Virus record (IMG/VR): IMGVR_UViG_3300034524_000181
Coordinates: 23,060-87,059 of that record
Length of the DNA stretch: 64,000 bases
Origin: a virus
Reading direction: 5' to 3' (one strand)
Both the position numbers and the translations under genes were made by a program. Shown piece after piece: positions 1,407 to 55,732 of the stretch. Position 1 is the stretch's first letter, and every line of letters begins with the position of its first letter. The notes below the pieces were generated by a model. The model searched no databases. It saw nothing but the letters and a program-made list of their open reading frames with translations, and was not told the DNA's origin.

Positions 1407-2228
1407 CTATGCGCTTTTTTGTTCACGTTCGATTACAGGCAATATACCTTTCTTGTTTTTAAGAAGGTCATAGATAAACAGCCTTCCTTTTTGTGTCCAA
1501 TATGTGTGCATTACGCTTCTTTCTGCATCAATAGCATGGGTCTTGGATTGCGTGTATCCTTGATCGGCGTACTCCTGATATAAAAGCCAGCAGTTTCCCA
1601 TTTTGTACTGTACCCCAAGTTCATGAAGCAGCTTATTGAAAGCGCGGCCAGACATTCCGTAATCCTTGGCAATCTTGCTGATCGGAACAAGGCTTTTATT
1701 TTGCAATATGAGATCATAATAGCTCGCCTTGGGCTTTAGCTCGCTGATAATCTGTTTATTCTTTGCATTTTCTATTTCTAAAGATTTCCGTCTGTCGCGT
1801 TCTGCCTTTAGTTCAGAGAAAATCCTGATACCATACTCCGGATTAGAAATCATCTCTTCGATAACTTTATCTGTAGCATAAACTCCATATTTTCTGATCG
1901 TGGGCAGCACTTCATCAAAGACCCATCTTTCAAAGCGTTCAGCAGCAGAAAGTTTACTACGTATAATGAGACGATATAGATTTCCCTCGGTAATATAAGT
2001 CCGTTCAACATGCTGTTCAGTCGAGATACCATATTGATTTGTAGTTAAGGTGACCCCGTCGTGTTTCACGACCCCGTCTGGTTTGCAATGGCGTTGTATC
2101 GCATCACGAGGGTTACTATATCCTAGCATCCTTGCACAATCCGTTGCAGGAAAGTATTCCTTTCCATCAATAACGAGTACTTTAAGTTCTCCAAATTCTG
2201 TATTCTTAAAAACCTGTAAATTAGTCAT
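1407..2228 (-). CDS. Phage antirepressor (Bro-N + KilA-C/ANT)
   Basis: FKNTEFGELKV...EGNLYRLIIRSKL...FERWVFDEVLPTIRKYG; C-terminal KPKASYYD...WTQKGRLFIY. Confidence 0.9.
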   Translation of the reverse strand: MTNLQVFKNTEFGELKVLVIDGKEYFPATDCARMLGYSNPRDAIQRHCKPDGVVKHDGVTLTTNQYGISTEQHVERTYITEGNLYRLIIRSKLSAAERFERWVFDEVLPTIRKYGVYATDKVIEEMISNPEYGIRIFSELKAERDRRKSLEIENAKNKQIISELKPKASYYDLILQNKSLVPISKIAKDYGMSGRAFNKLLHELGVQYKMGNCWLLYQEYADQGYTQSKTHAIDAERSVMHTYWTQKGRLFIYDLLKNKKGILPVIEREQKSA

Positions 2229-2232
2229 AATA

Positions 2233-4155
2233 TCAATCCTCCATTTCTTTCATTTCTCCAAAATTTCTTCCTACCGAAGCCTCTGCCACGATAGGTACAT
2301 CAAATTCAGGGAAGGGTTGTGTTTCCATACACTCTTTTATAAAAACAACTGCTTCGTCCACCTTGTCTTCCGGTAATTCAAAAACCAGCTCGTCATGTAT
2401 CTGCAGCATAGGTTTCAGCCAAAGCCTTTCGGGAAGTCCACTGATGATGCGCCCACAGGCAAGCTTTAGAATATCTGCCGCTGTACCTTGAATAGGTGTA
2501 TTTAATGCGCACCGCTCGGCAAACGACTTCTTGCCCCAATCTGATGACCGAATTCCCAGCAAGTATCTTCGCCTGCCCAGCCATGTTTCTGTATAGCAGC
2601 TTACAGCAGCCCGCTTTTTTACCTCATCCTGCCATTTGGCAAGACCGGGGTATCCGGATTTCAAGTTTTGAATGATGGTCTCACATTCGGACAAAGTTGG
2701 GTTCAGCCCAGCTTTAAATTTAAGTGTTCTCTGTAAGCCAGTAGGAAACAGGCCATAGAACACACCGAAATTGCAGTTCTTTGCAATGGTCCTACGCTCT
2801 TTATAATGTGGAGCATTTTTGTCTGCTGCCTCCTCAAAAGGAATGCGGTAAATAACAGAAGTGGTCTGAGCATGGATATCACCGCCAGTACGATAGGTTT
2901 CCAGCATACGTTTGTCCCTGCAATAAAATGCTCCGACGCGCAGTTCTATCTGTGAAAAGTCAAGGGATAAAAGAACCTTTCCGGCTGGCGAAATGATAAA
3001 TTTCCGTACGCCTATTGGGTCATTATCTTTCTGCGGGCAATTCTGCATATTCGGGTTTCTTGACGCAAATCTGCCTGTCTCTGTCCCCAGTGGCATAAGG
3101 TCCGGATGAATCCTGCCGGTATCCTCATCAATAAATCGAAGATACCCGTCTATATAGGTGGATTTGAGTTTGCCCCATTTGCGGTACTCTTGCACCAGAT
3201 CAAATAAGCGAGCAAGTTCAGGCCTGTTGGATTCACACCATTCTTTTAATAGGATCATGGTTTCATCATCGGCAGCTTCCTGATGTTTTGCGGTCGTTTT
3301 CATTACCGGAAGACCGAGATCCACAAAAAGATATTTTTTAAATGCTGAAGTTGAAGCATTTGCCCCAATCTCTACATTGCCGATAATTCCGGCAATCTCT
3401 TTTCTGATACTGACAATCTTTTCTGCGGCTTCCGCTTGTTTCTTCAGCATGGCTGACTTATCCACCAATATGCCGTTATACTTCATTATCCCGACATATA
3501 CTGATGTAGGCGATTCTACCTCTTCCACAATAGTTCTGTGTTTGGGTAAAAATCTATCAAACCACTGATTGAAAACATGATACAAGCGAAGAGTGTAGTC
3601 GCTGTCAGCACAAGCGTAGCGGACAGTCTTCTCATCCTGAGGGTTCAATTTATCGAAAAACCGACCTTCAGTAACCGTTGAGAATTCTGTCATTTCTGCT
3701 TTGCAGAGTGCAGGCGCAAGCGTTTTAAGTCCGCTGTCAGCAAGATTTCTGAACTCCCACTTGCTTTTTAATGTAAGTTGTGATGCTGCAATCGTGTCAT
3801 AGCAAGGCTTTTGAAGGACGATACCTCTTGCGTAAAGGAACATAGACTCAAAAGCCAGATTATGAGCAACTTTTATTACATCTTTTGATTCGAATAGTAA
3901 TTTCAGATAATCCCATATTGCCGCCTGGTTCTCTGCATTTCGCCCGCTACGATGTTTAAGTGGAACATATATAGCAGTCCCTTCTGATACTGAAAAACTG
4001 ATCCCTGTAATATCTGCTTTATGAGCATCCAGAGCTGCACTTTTATCGTTCCTCCATTTATCGTGGGGTGACGTTTCAAAGTCGAAAGCAAATAGGACAG
4101 TGTTTTTCAGATACTCTTTTATTTCAGACAGCATATAAACACATTTGTATCCCAT
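2233..4155 (-). CDS. Family A DNA polymerase with 3'-5' exonuclease domain (phage)
   Basis: DFET exonuclease motif, TGRFASRNPNMQN, DFSQIELR, KNCNFGVFYG, QIHDELVFE. Confidence 0.93.
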   Translation of the reverse strand: MGYKCVYMLSEIKEYLKNTVLFAFDFETSPHDKWRNDKSAALDAHKADITGISFSVSEGTAIYVPLKHRSGRNAENQAAIWDYLKLLFESKDVIKVAHNLAFESMFLYARGIVLQKPCYDTIAASQLTLKSKWEFRNLADSGLKTLAPALCKAEMTEFSTVTEGRFFDKLNPQDEKTVRYACADSDYTLRLYHVFNQWFDRFLPKHRTIVEEVESPTSVYVGIMKYNGILVDKSAMLKKQAEAAEKIVSIRKEIAGIIGNVEIGANASTSAFKKYLFVDLGLPVMKTTAKHQEAADDETMILLKEWCESNRPELARLFDLVQEYRKWGKLKSTYIDGYLRFIDEDTGRIHPDLMPLGTETGRFASRNPNMQNCPQKDNDPIGVRKFIISPAGKVLLSLDFSQIELRVGAFYCRDKRMLETYRTGGDIHAQTTSVIYRIPFEEAADKNAPHYKERRTIAKNCNFGVFYGLFPTGLQRTLKFKAGLNPTLSECETIIQNLKSGYPGLAKWQDEVKKRAAVSCYTETWLGRRRYLLGIRSSDWGKKSFAERCALNTPIQGTAADILKLACGRIISGLPERLWLKPMLQIHDELVFELPEDKVDEAVVFIKECMETQPFPEFDVPIVAEASVGRNFGEMKEMED

Positions 4156-4212
4156 GCGGTTCTCCTTTCCGCCCTATCGGAGATGGAAGTTACTCTCCGA
4201 TAGGGCCTTTGA

Positions 4213-4713
4213 TCACTTAAGCGGCTCAGTAATTTCACCTGATTCAGGGTCTACGGTTATTACGTCTTCACTGACAGGTTCAGTATCATGGCCTACGCGG
4301 GTACTGAATGCTTTGACCTGTTCGGAAAGCTTGGCTATCAGTGCATATTCGTCAGCGGTCAGATCCCGATCTACTGCAAACTGAGCTTGGGAATAGGTGA
4401 TACCGCTTGAATTGGTCGCCTTTTTCAAAGAAAAGCGAGTAACAACGCTGTTTGATTTTTTGCCTTTAGAAAGCAGCCTTTTGATGTAACGAGAGAACTC
4501 TTTCAACGATCCTGTGGGCAAAGAGAGTATCAACGGGAAAATCTCCCCTTCACGCAGTACATATATCCTGCGGCGGTTCTTGCAAGCTTTGCTGCCGTTT
4601 TCCCCCGAACCAAACTGATTATATGGACATTTGGCACAGCTTCCTCCGGGGTCTCCTTCGCCGGTTATACCATCAAAGCTTCCGCAATCCGGTGGGTTAC
4701 TGCCTCCGGTATG
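4213..4713 (-). pseudogene. 5'-truncated phage hypothetical protein (Cys-containing)
   Basis: Frame stays open upstream of 4533 ([14 protein letters not shown]...[12 protein letters not shown]...[10 protein letters not shown]) until it runs into antisense ilvB sequence at ~4711; no start or RBS seen. Confidence 0.6.
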
Positions 4714-20825: not shown

Positions 20826-23297
20826 TTATATTTGTTTAGGTAAGGCTTCCCATAACCTCATATCCTCCTGTCCCAGAGACCATATCGCAATCCCCCTAAG
20901 CTTCCATCGATACGCTGCCTCATTTGCCCAATAGACTAGGCTATCCACGTCTTGGTAGTAAAGAATTGAGAAGCCATCAGCATCCCCGAGAAATAGGCGT
21001 GAAATCCATACATTAATGTCCTTAGGCACAATCTTTACTGAATAGTCATTTCCACAGACCAATGATAAAAGCTCTGAGTGAAAAAAATCATAATCCATGG
21101 AAATATCCTGACTTCTTGTTGAAGCTTCCTCCACATCACTGTTAACTGTAAAAACCTGAAACTCACTATCCCATGTAACACCAGTTCTTTCTAGTCTCCC
21201 ATACTCCGTTCTAGTTCCATCTGGGAAGATTACATCAAATCTTTCATAAGGTTCATAAGTCCAGGCATCTCCTAATCTTATTAATTCACATAGAATACGT
21301 CCATCCGATTGAATTCCGGCATAACCACCTGAATAACCATCAAGCGACGCTGTGAATCGCAAAATACTACTTGCTCCAGAATAAACCCTTACAGAATTAC
21401 TACGTATCCTCATTTCAATGGTGTACATTCTTGGATTTGAGCGAAGATCTGATGATGGAGTTTTAGAAATTTCGGTTGCATAGCTTCCGATTAGAGTAGA
21501 ACCATTATATAGTTCAATACGCTGTGAATTAATATTTAAACAGCAAAAGAGTTCTCCACAAAAAATGCCAGCTCGACCACTTCCATCTGAAGGAAAAGCT
21601 AATCTCGCTCTTAAATGAACATCTGAGAAACCATTATATTTCCACGCCAACCTCCCATGTCCATCAAGCTGTGAATAAGGGCGAGTAGCTGGATCATTCT
21701 TGTTCTGCCACACCTCCCACTCTCCGCTTAATGTTGTCCAATAGCTGGATGGAAGCGGATTTTCATCTCGAAAGTCCTCATACCAAATTAGTGCTGAATC
21801 AGGCTTTCTACGAAGTACTTCCGTTGTCAATTTAAATCCCCGATCGGGCTGAACCATTAAACCGTTCACATCTTTAAACTGGCGAGGGGATAACATGAAG
21901 TCAGCCTCTCCAGCAGAAGGCTCTTCACTAAAGCTTGAACATACCCGAAATCCATAGAACTGTACTCCTGTTACTGAGGGACTAACTGTGACAGTATGAG
22001 TTCCAGCTGAAAGATATACACTCGAAGCCAAAGAGCTCCAGCAAGTTGTTCTCCAATATGGCCACCATAACCTACTCTCACTAAATACCTTATTTATTCC
22101 GTCAAGCGAAACATGGATAGTATTCTTGTCCCAAAAAGGAAAAGAAAAGCGAATAGCTACATCATAAAAACCAGCAGATTCTATTTCAAATTCGTAGGTG
22201 GCTTCACCTTCATCTCCAAGTGTAATAAATTGAGATGAAACTGATACATTACCAAAATAATTATCAGGTGTTCCACCACTACGGTCTATAAAGATTGTGC
22301 CAAATTCAGTTTTTTGTTGCTTACTATAGGCGGTCAAATATCTGCGACGACTATAGGATTCCTCAAGTAATGGGTATGTTCTTGAAACAGCATCCCAGCC
22401 TTCCATGTAGTCATACACATGTGGTAACGCCCAAGGAACCTTATCATAATCATCCCAATACGCAATGATTGGAATCATTGGTTGAGGTGGCCCGTCATCA
22501 GTAAAGTTATATCCTCCTGTCATCCAAAGCTTTGCTGCATAATAAGTGTTTGAAATCCCACGATATGTTATTCCAAGGTTCTCTGGTGTATCATGTATCC
22601 TCCAGTTCCAGCCATAGGCGGGCAATCCCAAAAATATTTTTTCAGGATTCATAACCCGAACAGCATAATCATAAATACCTTCCAACCAATCCCTCGGAGA
22701 AACCGGTCCCGGAGCAGAACCAGCCCATGCCATGCCATAACTCATAATCGCTGCCGTATCACAGTACGGATTTAAGTCTTCATAGACACACCAATTTTCG
22801 CCACCAACCGAGCCTTGTACTCCCGTCATTCCTGGTAAACAAATATTAACGAGTTTAGAAGAATCATAGGCTTTGACAGTATTATATATGTCACGAAATA
22901 GGGCATTGGCAGCATCCTTGTTCTCGTAGCCACCTCCACGTTCCAAGTCTATATCAACCCCTGCACACCATGGATACTTTTCCATAATGCGAATGATCTC
23001 AGTAAGAAATTTATCCTTCGCACCACTGGTATTATTTCTAAGGGCAGTAAAAATAGAAGCTGTACCATGATTCATAATAGTCAGTAGCCATTTGATATGA
23101 GGCCAACGGTTAATATAGGTAAGCATACTGGATATGCTTGTTCCTGTTTCTGTTATTGTCCCGGTGATATCCACTTCAAAAGTAAAAATACCCACCGTAT
23201 CAATTCGATCACCATAGTCTCGTAATGCTTGATACATGCGGGTATTCCCCATGAAACTCCAGACCATACAACGCTTACCTTTTAAATAGTCAATCAA
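20826..23297 (-). CDS. Tail-associated glycoside hydrolase family 18 protein
   Basis: GVDIDLE catalytic motif, MSYG, KIFLGLPAYG, C-terminal GIAIWSLGQED. Confidence 0.85.
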   Translation of the reverse strand: MIDYLKGKRCMVWSFMGNTRMYQALRDYGDRIDTVGIFTFEVDITGTITETGTSISSMLTYINRWPHIKWLLTIMNHGTASIFTALRNNTSGAKDKFLTEIIRIMEKYPWCAGVDIDLERGGGYENKDAANALFRDIYNTVKAYDSSKLVNICLPGMTGVQGSVGGENWCVYEDLNPYCDTAAIMSYGMAWAGSAPGPVSPRDWLEGIYDYAVRVMNPEKIFLGLPAYGWNWRIHDTPENLGITYRGISNTYYAAKLWMTGGYNFTDDGPPQPMIPIIAYWDDYDKVPWALPHVYDYMEGWDAVSRTYPLLEESYSRRRYLTAYSKQQKTEFGTIFIDRSGGTPDNYFGNVSVSSQFITLGDEGEATYEFEIESAGFYDVAIRFSFPFWDKNTIHVSLDGINKVFSESRLWWPYWRTTCWSSLASSVYLSAGTHTVTVSPSVTGVQFYGFRVCSSFSEEPSAGEADFMLSPRQFKDVNGLMVQPDRGFKLTTEVLRRKPDSALIWYEDFRDENPLPSSYWTTLSGEWEVWQNKNDPATRPYSQLDGHGRLAWKYNGFSDVHLRARLAFPSDGSGRAGIFCGELFCCLNINSQRIELYNGSTLIGSYATEISKTPSSDLRSNPRMYTIEMRIRSNSVRVYSGASSILRFTASLDGYSGGYAGIQSDGRILCELIRLGDAWTYEPYERFDVIFPDGTRTEYGRLERTGVTWDSEFQVFTVNSDVEEASTRSQDISMDYDFFHSELLSLVCGNDYSVKIVPKDINVWISRLFLGDADGFSILYYQDVDSLVYWANEAAYRWKLRGIAIWSLGQEDMRLWEALPKQI

Positions 23298-52226: not shown

Positions 52227-52313
52227 AAGAGAACCTCCTGCTTATAGTTGTAGAGCAATAAAACATGCCCTCAGCTATAAGCAAAAAAAGAGAAGGCATC
52301 GAACCCCCTCAAC

Positions 52314-55175
52314 TTAATCTTTTTTATAAAAATTACATTCAAACCCATCTGCACGAAGCAAAAGTCCCTGAGCCCAAGGCGGTGTTTGTCCCATAAGAGC
52401 ACAAATATCTGGAACGGATGTTTCTATTGGAACCTCCAAAACTACCTCATCATGGACATGCATTACAATATCAAAACCATTTTCATTCAATCTTCTCATG
52501 GCATAGCAAAGAATATCTCTCGAAATAGCCTGGACGATATTCTCTACAAACTTAGGGCCATAACTTTCAATACGCTCCCATTTCTTTGTGCCGCCAACAC
52601 CCTCATAAGTCACTGCTTCACTGCCAAAGCTGTTAATACCTATTCTTGGCTTGACATAAGTAAGTTGTCTGCCAGAAGGAAGCCATATTAAAAGCATCCC
52701 GCTACGATACTCAAAACGGATACGGTGGGTTTCGGTTCTACACCTTTCTGTTACAGCTTCTTTGACAGCACGATCAACATCCCACCAAAGTCTAACAATA
52801 TTAGGATTTGCATTCCTCCAAGCATAGACTAGCGGTTTTAATTCTTCTTCGGTAAGACCCATGTCAAGTGCACCCATTGCTTTTAATGCACCTACTGACC
52901 CTCCATAGCCACAGTTATGAACTAACACATTTGAAACAGTAAATCTATGATTCTTACCTGCATTTAATATGTCATAAACTCTAACCTTGCTTGGATTAAT
53001 CTCCAGTTCTTTCTCTGTTCTATAACTGCCATTTCTGCTGATGCTATAATTTCTTCTCTTGTCATGCCATTGGATATCATCCTTGTAACAACACTTCTTG
53101 CATAGGGCCAATTTTCTTGTTTGAAATCTGGGATTACTGATATTCTTCTGTTGGCTTGATTTATACTTCTTGGAACAAAACGAATATTGCCCTTTTCGTA
53201 ATTTCCGTCGTTGTCTATCCTGTCCATCTCTAAATCTTGGCGTACATTTTCTACATTTTTCAATATCCATATCCCCGCACTGAGAACTGAGGGAAAATTG
53301 AATTTTATACCCCTTCCCCCATATAAATGGTAATTCCTTGCCTTTGGATTCTCGCAACGCTGCTTTGCGGCAGCAAGTCTTTTCTGTAGCCACAAAGGTA
53401 TCTTCCTTTGTTGAGAGCATCTCTGGCAGCCTTTTGATTTTCCAGATTTTAAGCTGTTTAAATTTTGCCACTGTATACTGTGACAACCTGTGCATTGTGT
53501 TAGGACATAGCAATGATTCATCTTTGCATTCCATCTTTTCTGTGCACTTATTATTTTCACCCAGCCGTATTGCTCTCCTACCATTTCCGGTTTGTATGAG
53601 ATGTGCTTTGCAGGTGGCAGCTTCTCCAAATTGTATTGGCCTCGATTTCCCTTTGACCCATACAAGATGGTCTTTTGTAGCTGTAAGTCCTCCATAAGTT
53701 ATAACCTCCTTTTCACCTTTTGAAATGACACCATCATGTTTTACCCAATCTTCACCATCCCACAATTTATGTTTTGTTGTAATATCTTGAATTGGAACAA
53801 GTCCTTTATCCGTTAACACAAGACTATTATGTGCTATACAAGCCAGTTCTGCCTGCTTACCTTTCTGCCTTAAATGTCCGTTAACGCCATTCTTCTCAAC
53901 AGGAACATTAAACATTTGCGATGCTGAAGCACAATAAATGTCTCCGCCATTTGCAAACACTTCATTTCTCCATGTCTCCCCAGCAAGCCAAGCAATTACT
54001 CTAGCTTCTATTGCACTAAAGTCAGCAACGATAAACTTATATCCTTTCTTTGGCACAAAAGCGGTTCGGATTAATTCAGACAAAACTCCCGGAATAGAGT
54101 CATACAATATTTCCAAGGCATCAAAATGGCCACCTCTAACCAATCGACGTGCCTGTTCCAGATCCGACAAATGGTTCTGAGGGAGATTTTGAACTTGTAT
54201 AAGCCTTCCTGCAAATCTACCGGTTCGATTAGCACCGTAGAATTGTAGTAGTCCCCGAGCTCTTCCGTCAGTGCATACAGCATTTTCCATAGCGGTGTAT
54301 TTCTTTACACTGGATTTAGCTAGTAACTGTCTCAGTTCCAGTACTTCACTCAGATGTTCTGGAGCTTCCTTTAATAGTGCCTTAACTGATGCCTTATCAA
54401 GACTGTCTGTTTCCAGACCATTTTCTGATAGCCAGGACTTCATTTGAACAACTGAATTAGGATTTTCAAGTTCAGTTAGTTCTTTTAGTCTGCTTGTAAG
54501 CTCTTCTCGGGTTTGCTCATCACATTGGATAGCTTGCCTTACCAATTCCAAATCCAACTGAATACCTCGATCATTGATTTGCTGGTCTAGAATATAGTTC
54601 TTCCACTCCTCTTCCGGCATAGGAAATTTTTGAAGCTTTGCCTGTATGGAAAGTTCAACTTCAACGTCTCGAAGGTTATATTCTTTGAAGCTATTCCACT
54701 TCTCTGGAGCATGTTCAGGTAAATTTCGTGTACGACCACCATTCGCCCCTGTTGGTTTGCATGGAACTGAAAAATATCGGATGAGCTCTTTACCTTCTGT
54801 CAGCTTTTTCTTATCTGCTCCTGTTACAATTGCTGCCCCTTCCAAAGATAGAGGAAGTCCAAGATACGCAGACCATACCATCGTACAACGCCAAGAATCA
54901 GGTTCTAGGTGAATACCAAAGTGTTTAGATAAGCAAATCCGTTCAAACTGCGCATTGAATGCCCATTTGGTAACATTATTATCTAAAATCGCTTGCTGTA
55001 TTTCTTTAGGTATTTTTTCGCCACAAGCGAAATCCACTACTTGTACCGGCCCAGCATCTACACTGTAACCGAAAAGTAAAATCTCAAAATCCGGTGCTTC
55101 AGCGTAACGATAGACCCCGCTTTTGGCGAGGTCTACGCTACTATATGTTTCTATATCTATGCTGAGGGTTCTCAT
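52314..55175 (-). CDS. Phage family A DNA polymerase containing an intein
   Basis: DIET, RTGRFAG, DFSAIEAR, KGKQAELA[intein]CGYGG, HVHDE. Confidence 0.93.
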   Translation of the reverse strand: MRTLSIDIETYSSVDLAKSGVYRYAEAPDFEILLFGYSVDAGPVQVVDFACGEKIPKEIQQAILDNNVTKWAFNAQFERICLSKHFGIHLEPDSWRCTMVWSAYLGLPLSLEGAAIVTGADKKKLTEGKELIRYFSVPCKPTGANGGRTRNLPEHAPEKWNSFKEYNLRDVEVELSIQAKLQKFPMPEEEWKNYILDQQINDRGIQLDLELVRQAIQCDEQTREELTSRLKELTELENPNSVVQMKSWLSENGLETDSLDKASVKALLKEAPEHLSEVLELRQLLAKSSVKKYTAMENAVCTDGRARGLLQFYGANRTGRFAGRLIQVQNLPQNHLSDLEQARRLVRGGHFDALEILYDSIPGVLSELIRTAFVPKKGYKFIVADFSAIEARVIAWLAGETWRNEVFANGGDIYCASASQMFNVPVEKNGVNGHLRQKGKQAELACIAHNSLVLTDKGLVPIQDITTKHKLWDGEDWVKHDGVISKGEKEVITYGGLTATKDHLVWVKGKSRPIQFGEAATCKAHLIQTGNGRRAIRLGENNKCTEKMECKDESLLCPNTMHRLSQYTVAKFKQLKIWKIKRLPEMLSTKEDTFVATEKTCCRKAALRESKGKELPFIWGKGYKIQFSLSSQCGDMDIEKCRKCTPRFRDGQDRQRRKLRKGQYSFCSKKYKSSQQKNISNPRFQTRKLALCKKCCYKDDIQWHDKRRNYSISRNGSYRTEKELEINPSKVRVYDILNAGKNHRFTVSNVLVHNCGYGGSVGALKAMGALDMGLTEEELKPLVYAWRNANPNIVRLWWDVDRAVKEAVTERCRTETHRIRFEYRSGMLLIWLPSGRQLTYVKPRIGINSFGSEAVTYEGVGGTKKWERIESYGPKFVENIVQAISRDILCYAMRRLNENGFDIVMHVHDEVVLEVPIETSVPDICALMGQTPPWAQGLLLRADGFECNFYKKD
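52914..53840 (-). mobile_element. Intein (309 aa) in the DNA polymerase O-helix/motif B region
   Basis: Starts CIAHNSLVLT, block B TKDH, block F/G VYDI...FTVSNVLVHN, +1 Cys; removal restores KQAELA-CGYGG (644-aa extein). Confidence 0.92.
52964..53695 (-). CDS. HNH-type homing endonuclease in an alternative frame inside the intein
   Basis: AAGGAGGT-8 nt-ATG; CTGC...CQRC, KQRCENP, YGGRGI, DRIDNDGNYEKGN motifs. Confidence 0.8.
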   Translation of the reverse strand: MEDLQLQKTILYGSKGNRGQYNLEKLPPAKHISYKPEMVGEQYGWVKIISAQKRWNAKMNHCYVLTQCTGCHSIQWQNLNSLKSGKSKGCQRCSQQRKIPLWLQKRLAAAKQRCENPKARNYHLYGGRGIKFNFPSVLSAGIWILKNVENVRQDLEMDRIDNDGNYEKGNIRFVPRSINQANRRISVIPDFKQENWPYARSVVTRMISNGMTREEIIASAEMAVIEQRKNWRLIQARLEFMTY

Positions 55176-55732
55176 GATAAAAAGTCATCATCCACGTCAG
55201 TGGCAAAGTCATCAGCTGCATTAGTTCTTCCACCCAAAGGCTCACCATCGCGGATTTTTTGAATATTTCCAAGACCACATGCTATACCCTTATTCCCATT
55301 GGAGTTAAAGGCATAAAAGTTGATACTTACTCTTGCATAAACACCGGAGTATACTTCTGAACGCTCAAGGATTGGATTGATATTTTTATCTACAATTTGT
55401 GGAGGGGTATTGCTATTGGCATTGATAAAATAGCTATTTGCATAAGCTTCATCATCTGGACGATCAATATCTCCGTCACGTAGAGGAAGCTTTAACGCCG
55501 CTTTATTTGGAATCTTACTACCGAATTTACCTTTACCTTCTTCTATTGCAGCATTCACCGCTTCATTGATAGCGCTTAAGGTTTTAGTATCACTCTTAGG
55601 AATAATCAGGCTCACACTGTATTTTTCAGCACCGCCATTGATTGATTTAGGTTCCCACACATTAGCATAAGAAAGTCTGACAACTCCTGTAACTACTTTT
55701 GTTGGATTTGTTCTTTTTGCTGTTTTTGACAT
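55172..55732 (-). CDS. DUF2815 phage ssDNA-binding protein
   Basis: RLSYANVWEP, KYSVSLII, LRDGD, YSGVY, GLGNIQK; acidic tail. Confidence 0.88.
   Translation of the reverse strand: MSKTAKRTNPTKVVTGVVRLSYANVWEPKSINGGAEKYSVSLIIPKSDTKTLSAINEAVNAAIEEGKGKFGSKIPNKAALKLPLRDGDIDRPDDEAYANSYFINANSNTPPQIVDKNINPILERSEVYSGVYARVSINFYAFNSNGNKGIACGLGNIQKIRDGEPLGGRTNAADDFATDVDDDFLS

Follow-up and report, generated by a model that had tools for sequence, protein, structure and literature searches.

Inteins that carry a homing endonuclease gene outside their own reading frame have been described in actinobacteriophages. In the parts of the preprint compared here, Gosselin and colleagues (bioRxiv 10.1101/2025.01.02.630785) describe inteins in which a homing endonuclease of the endonuclease VII-like type lies 'in reading frame 3', and also antisense LAGLIDADG or VSR-like endonucleases that likewise lie outside the intein frame. 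The origin proposed there is the invasion of inteins by free-standing endonuclease genes, and later indels that would bring these into frame are presented as speculation. Two other arrangements are related. The ShiLan 'hidden HNH' insertion in a mycobacteriophage methylase has no splicing domain in the account of Arsenault et al. (PMC11855218), as far as the portion compared goes, and the fractured genes of Dassa et al. 2009 (PMC2677866) are presented in the part consulted as split inteins with a free-standing endonuclease gene between the two halves. Here, an intein in a family-A DNA polymerase gene is analysed that contains a second open reading frame (ORF), nested in the +1 frame of the same strand. 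It lies in a stretch of 64,000 nucleotides (nt), referred to as the window, which spans positions 23,060 to 87,059 of the IMG/VR virus record IMGVR_UViG_3300034524_000181.

We put at about 85% the probability that the 927-bp insert is one mobile unit coding in two frames, a mini-intein together with an independent nuclease gene that drives homing. Splicing, the start site, nuclease activity and the target are all inferred from sequence. Frame 0 would encode a class-1 mini-intein, in which approximately 113 HINT residues are divided by a disordered spacer of 196 residues, and which would excise itself from a precursor of 953 amino acids (aa) to restore polymerase motif B (KQAELA-CGYGG). As the middle would be removed by splicing, frame 0 need only stay open there. 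Frame +1 would be an independent gene of 243 aa, belonging to a phage 'HNH endonuclease' family related to HNH_3/I-HmuI. Ribosomes would start on it within the polymerase mRNA, using a Shine-Dalgarno (SD) sequence and an ATG that belong to this gene and are in intein block B. The protein made most likely attacks intein-less polymerase alleles at the motif-B site by nicking or cutting, and repair of the cut allele would copy in the whole unit, which is homing.

All features of the locus are on the minus strand. The polymerase precursor (52314-55175) is one continuous ORF of 953 aa, intein included, or 644 aa without the intein. It matches Pfam DNA_pol_A with an E value of 4.3e-20 and its relatives are annotated 'DNA polymerase I'. 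The N-extein (53841-55175, 445 aa) ends in ...RQKGKQAELA, in the region of motif B, and the C-extein (52314-52913, 199 aa plus stop) starts with the +1 Cys (52913-52911) of CGYGGS.... Between them is the class-1 intein in frame 0 (52914-53840; 309 codons, CIAHNS...VLVHN). Its N-terminal splicing part (53583-53840, aa 1-86) holds blocks A and B, with Cys1 encoded by TGT at 53840-53838 and block B reading 'TKDH'. Its C-terminal splicing part (52914-52994, aa 283-309) holds blocks F ('VRVYDILNAGKNHRF') and G, and the terminal 'VHN' ends at 52914. The spacer that separates the two parts (52995-53582, aa 87-282) is open, unconserved, rich in K, R and C, and a frame-0 shadow of the nested gene. The nested ORF (52964-53695), which encodes a HNH_3-like putative homing endonuclease of 243 aa, corresponds to nt 146-877 of the intein at an offset of +1, starting with ATG at 53695 and stopping with TAA at 52966-52964, within the block F codons ATA TTA AAT. 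Its SD sequence, AAGGAGGT (53704-53711), is separated from the ATG by 8 nt and encodes Lys-Glu-Val in the intein. A first-pass annotation of this DNA had given the coordinates of the intein and the nested ORF, and all hold on re-reading of the sequence. The intein hallmarks that it listed (Cys1, a TxxH block B, block F, His-Asn and the +1 Cys) are all found, and the SD 8 nt before the ATG, which is also KEV in the intein frame, and the stop in block F are as it described them.

The nested protein consists of a leader (aa 1-37), a beta-rich domain with CxxC..CxxC, a core at approximately aa 97-186 made up of KQRCENPK/YGGRGI plus DRID..N, and three C-terminal helices. There is one copy of its gene in the whole IMG/VR provirus record of 87,059 bp.

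When set beside the inteins of bioRxiv 10.1101/2025.01.02.630785, as its compared sections present them, the present one is similar in having an endonuclease ORF on the same strand, but in another frame, in the endonuclease slot of a contiguous intein, in the absence of recognisable structure from the in-frame middle, and in its sporadic distribution. It is set apart by its nuclease, which is HNH_3-like with 'DRID' rather than endonuclease VII-like, by the +1 offset and the insertion in motif B of a family-A polymerase, and by its hosts, which are prophages of Bacillota and others and Jersey-like Salmonella phages rather than actinobacteriophages. With the ShiLan insertion (PMC11855218, in the portion compared) it shares an out-of-frame HNH gene within an insertion that is open in the host frame, and a homing function inferred from distribution. 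However, ShiLan has no detectable splicing domain or ribosome-binding site and a leaderless GTG start is proposed for it, whereas the polymerase locus has a full HINT intein and an SD with an ATG. In the fractured genes (PMC2677866, in the part consulted), the endonuclease is again a separate ORF in the intein slot that is related to free-standing genes, but the host gene is present as two ORFs that are joined by trans-splicing, and here frame 0 is continuous. A split intein or fractured gene is ruled out for the window, the host gene being a single continuous ORF.

The sequence is constrained in both frames. A stop codon in frame 0 needs a nested codon ending in T followed by a codon starting with AA, AG or GA. 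In the nested ORF of the window, none of the 81 codons that precede AA, AG or GA ends in T, compared with 50 of the other 162 codons. Over the 52 distinct inteins of at least 250 aa, the corresponding figures are 0 of 3606 and 2395 of 9545. The intein frame is therefore free of stops because nested codons never end in T before AA, AG or GA. When the codons of the nested ORF were permuted synonymously, with the protein fixed, the intein frame was stop-free in 0 of 5000 permutations, which had a mean of 13.1 stops; recoding with the codon usage of the exteins gave 0 of 5000 and a mean of 24.5 stops. The related inteins L001, L002 and L003 gave the same result as the window, with frame 0 open in 0 of 5000 permutations each. 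A total of 80 loci with a complete intein were collected, representing 57 distinct sequences. Frame 0 has no stops in all 57, and in 57 of 57 the longest alternative ORF is in frame +1. The allele of the window is present, identical over its 927 nt, in 8 loci. Neither a ribosome-binding site nor a codon rule for stop avoidance is mentioned in the compared parts of the main text of bioRxiv 10.1101/2025.01.02.630785.

The two frames are conserved in different regions. The inteins of the window, L001, L002 and L003 are all 927 nt and align without gaps. In the first 47 codons of the intein, the N-terminal splicing part that is not overlapped, identity is 0.69 in frame 0 and 0.33 in both frame +1 and the third frame. 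In the core of the overlap it is 0.35 in frame 0, 0.64 in frame +1 and 0.33 in the third frame. The short overlap with block B (nested residues 1-37) has 0.62, 0.68 and 0.60, respectively, and the last 17 codons, from the C-terminal splicing part, have 0.84, 0.47 and 0.48. The middle of the intein frame is therefore selected only to stay open. The few conserved columns in the frame-0 spacer, such as ...LRESK..., are the shadow of the nested KQRCENPK motif. It had been proposed on first reading that approximately 730 nt are constrained in two frames, and the stop avoidance and the region-specific identities bear this out, as does the comparison of conservation per frame that was suggested as a check, in which frame +1 is conserved in the core and frame 0 in the splicing blocks. 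Likewise, the centre of the intein frame, in which no endonuclease motif had been recognised, is unconserved as protein (0.35 against 0.33 in an unused frame) and is predicted to be disordered. The dual coding is more than chance and is kept by selection.

The in-frame product has the characteristics of an intein at both ends. Cys1 is invariant in 20 of 20 aligned inteins, as are T55, H58, H308 and N309 in the same alignment. A structure model of this product, made with the 20-sequence alignment, has predicted local distance difference test scores (pLDDT) of 84-92 over residues 1-86 and of 74-90 over the blocks that span residues 283-309, while the 196 residues between them (87-282) are below 50. 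It matches the splicing domain of the Mtu RecA intein (2imz) with Z 15.5 and a root-mean-square deviation of 2.8 over 120 aligned residues, followed by gp41-1 (6riz, Z 15.1), NrdJ-1 (14.7) and NpuDnaB (4o1r, 14.7). At Z of at least 8 there are 30 matching chains, all of them inteins or hedgehog/BIL-type domains. The modelling of the intein product that had been proposed as a check thus gives a predicted HINT fold with an unstructured middle. The frame-0 insert is assigned to the class-1 inteins with a HINT fold; it is situated in motif B of the replicative polymerase, from which it would splice itself out.

The nested protein matches the profile of PHROG 374 'HNH endonuclease' (E 1.5e-21), and E values of 5.5e-10 or better are reached by another four PHROGs whose names refer to HNH or restriction endonucleases. 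Pfam HNH_3 is matched weakly by 5 of 32 family members, the best at E 0.0028. The sole match of the family profile among PDB sequences is I-HmuI, at a weak E value of 0.16, where ...DRIDNDGNYE.GN.RFV....N..N of the family aligns with ...DHKDGNKDNNLSTNLRWVTQKINVEN of I-HmuI. Relative to I-HmuI, the family has an additional invariant module, KQRCENPK..YGGRGI, a motif that was also the seed of the search. The model of the nested protein has a mean pLDDT of 81.8 and contains a beta-rich CxxC..CxxC domain, a long helix bearing KQRCENPK, a beta-beta-alpha element (strands 156-159 and 171-174, helix 176-181) and three C-terminal helices. Free-standing phage homologues, such as the 'HNH endonuclease' of Staphylococcus phage S-CoN_Ph1, share the KQRCENPK..YGGRGI..DRID..N core. 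Phage genes of the free-standing kind are also the nearest outgroups of the nested gene, whose conservation as protein extends to distant hosts at 40% identity. The first-pass annotation raised the possibility of a free-standing endonuclease gene sheltering in a mini-intein, and this fits both the disordered middle and these outgroups.

The nested gene also appears to have its own start signals. Of 52 distinct alleles, 45 retain its ATG and 43 have an SD core no more than 20 nt upstream of the nested start. Since the bases of the SD and ATG also encode conserved intein residues, the synonymous choices were examined. The Glu codon in the SD is GAG in 40 of 45 alleles, against 56 of 217 for the remaining Glu codons among the first 44 codons of the intein. 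TAT is used in 45 of 52 alleles for the Tyr codon from which the ATG takes its 'AT', against 62 of 103 elsewhere. This codon bias argues for translation of the nested ORF. A consensus scan for an internal promoter gave 5 promoter-like sites against 8.9 expected by shuffle, none of them well placed and nothing firm. That none upstream exceeds the shuffle expectation fits translation of the nested gene from the polymerase mRNA, and internal initiation on this mRNA is the most likely route to the nested protein. A separate SD and ATG for the endonuclease, as first proposed, fits the conserved signals and the GAG and TAT bias, from which independent translation may be inferred. The same type of consensus scan is the basis for a terminator-like hairpin on the minus strand at 52290-52310, directly 3' of the polymerase stop.

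The distribution of the intein suggests mobility. Compared with L011, a prophage in Clostridium homopropionicum, nucleotide identity is 66.7% in the N-extein, 96.1% in the intein and 72.7% in the C-extein, and it tapers over about 100-200 nt on either side of the intein. Compared with L032, the values are 93%, 100% and 75%. Such an intein, 96-100% identical across exteins of 67-75% identity, needs a recent transfer. The 80 nearest relatives of the N-extein in IMG/VR (66-97% aa identity) were surveyed for empty sites. Two of these polymerases bear the intein and 74 have the uninterrupted site KIAELA/LGYGGS (the slash marks the insertion point here and below), with Leu at +1. One is empty with Cys at +1 (L103), one is otherwise interrupted (L147) and two are unclassified. 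The mosaic of identity and the sporadic presence are what is expected of classic endonuclease-driven homing with co-conversion; the element looks recently mobile, and this speaks for present or recent activity of the nested gene or of another part of the unit.

Several observations were made at related sites. The motif-B sites of L103, L150, L151 and L152 are empty and read ...LA CGYGG, with Cys at +1 in place of the usual Leu, which would be the expected remnant of precise intein loss. In L147 (approximately 3840-4000), a short and different insertion follows ...AELALG in motif B, the C-terminal part continues in another frame, and an ORF resembling a serine recombinase is present downstream. 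L009, L010 and L023 have the identical 927-nt intein and N-extein proteins that are 91-96% identical to that of the window, yet their record titles are an Ectobacillus sp. metagenome-assembled genome (MAG), Soehngenia longivitae and a Desulfitobacteriia MAG, which points to a prophage of wide host range or else to mis-binned contigs.

By tblastn, the nested protein is found at 63-68% identity within a single 'DNA polymerase' coding sequence (CDS) in four named phages, these being Gardnerella phage vB_Gva_AB1 and the Streptococcus phages Javan255, Javan101/104/107/113 and PhiSdyV1524. Scans of GTDB genomes, IMG/VR and metagenomes gave further relatives with the record titles Soehngenia longivitae, Clostridium homopropionicum, Ruminococcus callidus and Acidaminococcus hominis, and with the MAG labels Ectobacillus, Desulfitobacteriia, Spirochaetales, Alistipes and Selenomonadaceae.

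A number of results weigh against the reading of one mobile unit with an independent nuclease gene. The nested protein of the window has zero matches in Pfam and NCBIfam. There is no invariant or nearly invariant His in the 32-sequence alignment of its family, and in the I-HmuI alignment the invariant Asp-Arg of the family (R159) is opposite the Asp-His of I-HmuI, whose His is the general base. Foldseek found nothing in the PDB at E values of 0.001 or lower for the model. With VIA-align the best match is PacI at Z 5.3-5.4, level with an unrelated axonemal chain (Z 5.4), and I-HmuI (1u3e) is weak at Z 2.7. The SD and ATG are inside conserved intein codons, so part of their conservation is owed to the intein frame, and 7 of the 52 alleles have ACG at the position of the ATG and need another start; in these seven, additional ATGs of the nested frame are present farther upstream. 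Frame 0 is open but the nested ORF is cut short by a premature stop in four distinct long alleles out of 52 (five loci: L004, L018, L054 and L174/L175), and most of the nested gene has been lost from mini-inteins of 135-168 aa in L007, L153, L161, L181 and L182, again with frame 0 open. A fixed intein can therefore do without the nuclease. The counts themselves have to be read with two limits in mind: most loci were gathered through their resemblance to the nested protein, a bias towards intact nested ORFs that leaves the openness of frame 0 unselected, and because related alleles cannot be treated as independent, there are fewer independent events than the counts imply.

Because of the missing conserved His and the weak fold matches, the nested protein is labelled HNH_3-like, short of a proven HNH enzyme, and is considered a putative homing endonuclease. 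The 'HNH-type' label of the first-pass annotation thus stands in so far as the PHROG profiles match, and does not stand as a firm assignment for a protein with no Pfam or NCBIfam match and a core with no conserved His. PacI is an HNH enzyme with a general base other than His, which would make Tyr166, invariant in the nested family, of interest.

On another reading, the nested ORF would be the decaying relic of a formerly in-frame or free-standing endonuclease that is no longer made, with only the mini-intein functional and the intein a fixed, vertically inherited passenger. The premature +1-frame stops, the five mini-inteins that have lost the nested gene and the lack of a conserved catalytic His are all in line with decay. 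However, the +1 frame is conserved as a protein, at 0.64 against 0.33-0.35 in the other frames and to the 40% identity seen in distant hosts, the codon bias at the start signals points to translation, and the near-identical inteins in divergent exteins indicate recent transfer rather than vertical inheritance. A relic is accordingly held to be improbable. One of the broken alleles is in Streptococcus phage PhiSdyV1524-fexAoptrA (L004:2501-3088), where the nested frame stops after ...SQKY (195 aa) and the intein frame is open; in the same record, the adjacent gene bears the annotation 'toxin TenpN protein'.

A related but distinct arrangement is present in the Jersey-like Salmonella phages and in Sodalis phage SO-1 (gp38/gp39; NC_013600, PP932687). 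Their inteins, for example that of Salmonella phage vB_SalP_LDDK01 (L005:2274-3170) and that of SO-1 (L006:2256-3152), are homologous to the intein of the window, with 37-38% identity over 60 aa. The nested gene, 33-34% identical to that of the window, is out of frame and the polymerase frame is open. The site differs, being 4 codons upstream in motif B (GKA/C...AHN/CELG), as does the offset, which is +2 against +1 in the window. Synonymous permutation left frame 0 stop-free in 0 of 5000 cases for the Salmonella phage intein and 2 of 5000 for that of SO-1. The Salmonella polymerase CDS is annotated 'intein-containing DNA polymerase precursor' and these records leave the nested gene unannotated. 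In the tblastn search with the nested protein, 149 listed records have an organism name beginning with Salmonella. Inteins in Jerseyvirus are mentioned in PMC8425127, and in the portion of that article compared the out-of-frame gene is not. In the SO-1 record the nested gp39 is annotated, but the element is called a 'type I self-splicing intron'.

That annotation is the point in favour of a group I intron with an HNH ORF, which together with an assembly or sequencing artefact would be another way to account for the layout. Frame 0, however, has every intein block and folds in the model as HINT, and a search of 52300-55200 on both strands with Rfam gave no match of any kind, a group I ribozyme core included, at E values up to 1. 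This null across the polymerase gene rules out a group I intron for the window, and the SO-1 annotation looks like a misannotation. An artefact is opposed by the offset shared among 57 distinct alleles from independent assemblies. The contigs of 4 runs from 4 studies (X1, X2, X4 and X11) on the relative L155 are all of the L155 type, with no indel in the intein. Sequencing error is ruled out by these contigs, by the shared offset and by the same allele in 8 loci. The probability left to an intron or an artefact is negligible.

The two-frame unit is also found away from its motif-B site. In a GC-rich viral contig (L055), an SF2/RadD-like helicase gene (1698-4424) contains a homologous intein at 2766-3677 with a nested ORF at 2848-3669, offset +1, the product of which is 40% identical to that of the window; the site is ASEKPD/C...VHN/CLILDV. 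The unit is therefore present in more than one host gene. The polymerase itself has a second intein site, GGKLAEN/C...LVHN/CVQAIARD, at which L153 (1194-2108) has an intein, and the homologue in its +1 frame is similar to the free-standing type (CRCVCG..SCGC). L153 also holds a mini-intein of 157 aa at motif B, and L150 (3232-3645) has a mini-intein with no nuclease at this second polymerase site. Including the Salmonella/SO-1 site, out-of-frame units are thus found at four places: polymerase motif B, the second polymerase site, the SF2 helicase and the Salmonella/SO-1 site.

One lineage appears to have the nuclease in frame with the intein. A protein search for the nested sequence in longer proteins identified the P0005 cluster, consisting of seven proteins (P0005 and P0007-P0012) of 955-962 aa from 54 contigs. 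In all seven, the intein frame enters the nuclease frame at ...NNFFGK/RYVGKRHRPYVLTQC... and exits at ...WPYAKK/DSTKQ.... The sister allele L155 (2001-2930) is of the out-of-frame kind and has an AAAAAA run precisely at each switch point, so that one A lost at the entry and one A gained at the exit would account for the in-frame form. It seems, judging from the seven protein sequences, that the P0005 lineage went from A6 to A5 at the entry and from A6 to A7 at the exit. In the nuclease tree, P0005 pairs with L155 (100/99) within a +1-frame clade of 51 rows, these being 50 out-of-frame rows and P0005. The in-frame state therefore looks derived. The tree is midpoint-rooted and has long-branch warnings for L055, L180 and the free-standing rows, and was used only for the pairing of P0005 with L155. 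A mini-intein of 139 aa with the nuclease deleted (L161:2001-2417), which like L155 came from the metagenome scan, belongs to the P0005/L155 lineage, and the IMG/VR loci L150-L152, with exteins 95-97% identical to those of L161, have empty motif-B sites that have kept the +1 Cys.

These A6 runs would also suit ribosomal frameshifting or transcriptional slippage into the +1 frame and back, by which the endonuclease would be made as a fusion with the intein, since they are exactly where the in-frame P0005 proteins change frame. In the intein of the window, however, runs of A or T do not exceed 5, and a run of 5 occurs once. The conserved ATG with its upstream SD and the first 37 codons of the nested ORF, which would be needless in a fusion, also oppose such a route, and we consider it very unlikely. 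In proteins P0001-P0004, one frame runs into the other only once, giving either the N-extein with the N-terminal part of the intein and the nuclease (766-771 aa, and a fragment of 484 aa), or the nuclease with the C-terminal part of the intein and the C-extein (461 aa). These may be broken polymerase genes, forms resembling split inteins or assembly errors.

Under the preferred reading of a mini-intein with an independent nuclease gene, it is possible that the two-frame unit is an old, stable and self-contained mobile module rather than a short-lived intermediate, and that the nuclease core has been captured into frame in one lineage; we regard this as tentative, at slightly less than even odds. 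If true, it would illustrate in nature how a free-standing nuclease becomes part of a canonical bifunctional intein.

The kind of intein with an out-of-frame endonuclease and the model of its origin are already in print (2025), and the present element adds to this kind with another nuclease family. The alternative-frame endonuclease cases in actinobacteriophages to which the first-pass annotation pointed are indeed published, as the compared portions of bioRxiv 10.1101/2025.01.02.630785 and PMC11855218 attest. A literature search, with subscription journals and supplementary files outside its reach, found nothing on the polymerase motif-B lineage or on the nested gene of the Jersey-like phages. 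The current understanding of inteins is unchanged by the finding.

What is added is the extension of out-of-frame endonuclease inteins beyond the actinobacteriophages. The lineage concerned is large, has mostly escaped annotation, and is found in the polymerases of prophages whose hosts are Bacillota or other gut and anaerobic bacteria, and in those of the well-studied Jersey-like phages of Salmonella. The avoidance of codons ending in T before AA, AG or GA is a countable signature of dual-frame coding that could be used by annotation pipelines. The questions addressed are how inteins gain endonucleases and how a gene nested within an essential gene is translated, and for these the nested, in-frame, nuclease-deleted and empty-site alleles within one lineage provide testable material. 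Of most interest are the chemistry of the putative nuclease, which lacks a conserved His, and the lineage where capture into the intein frame seems to have occurred.

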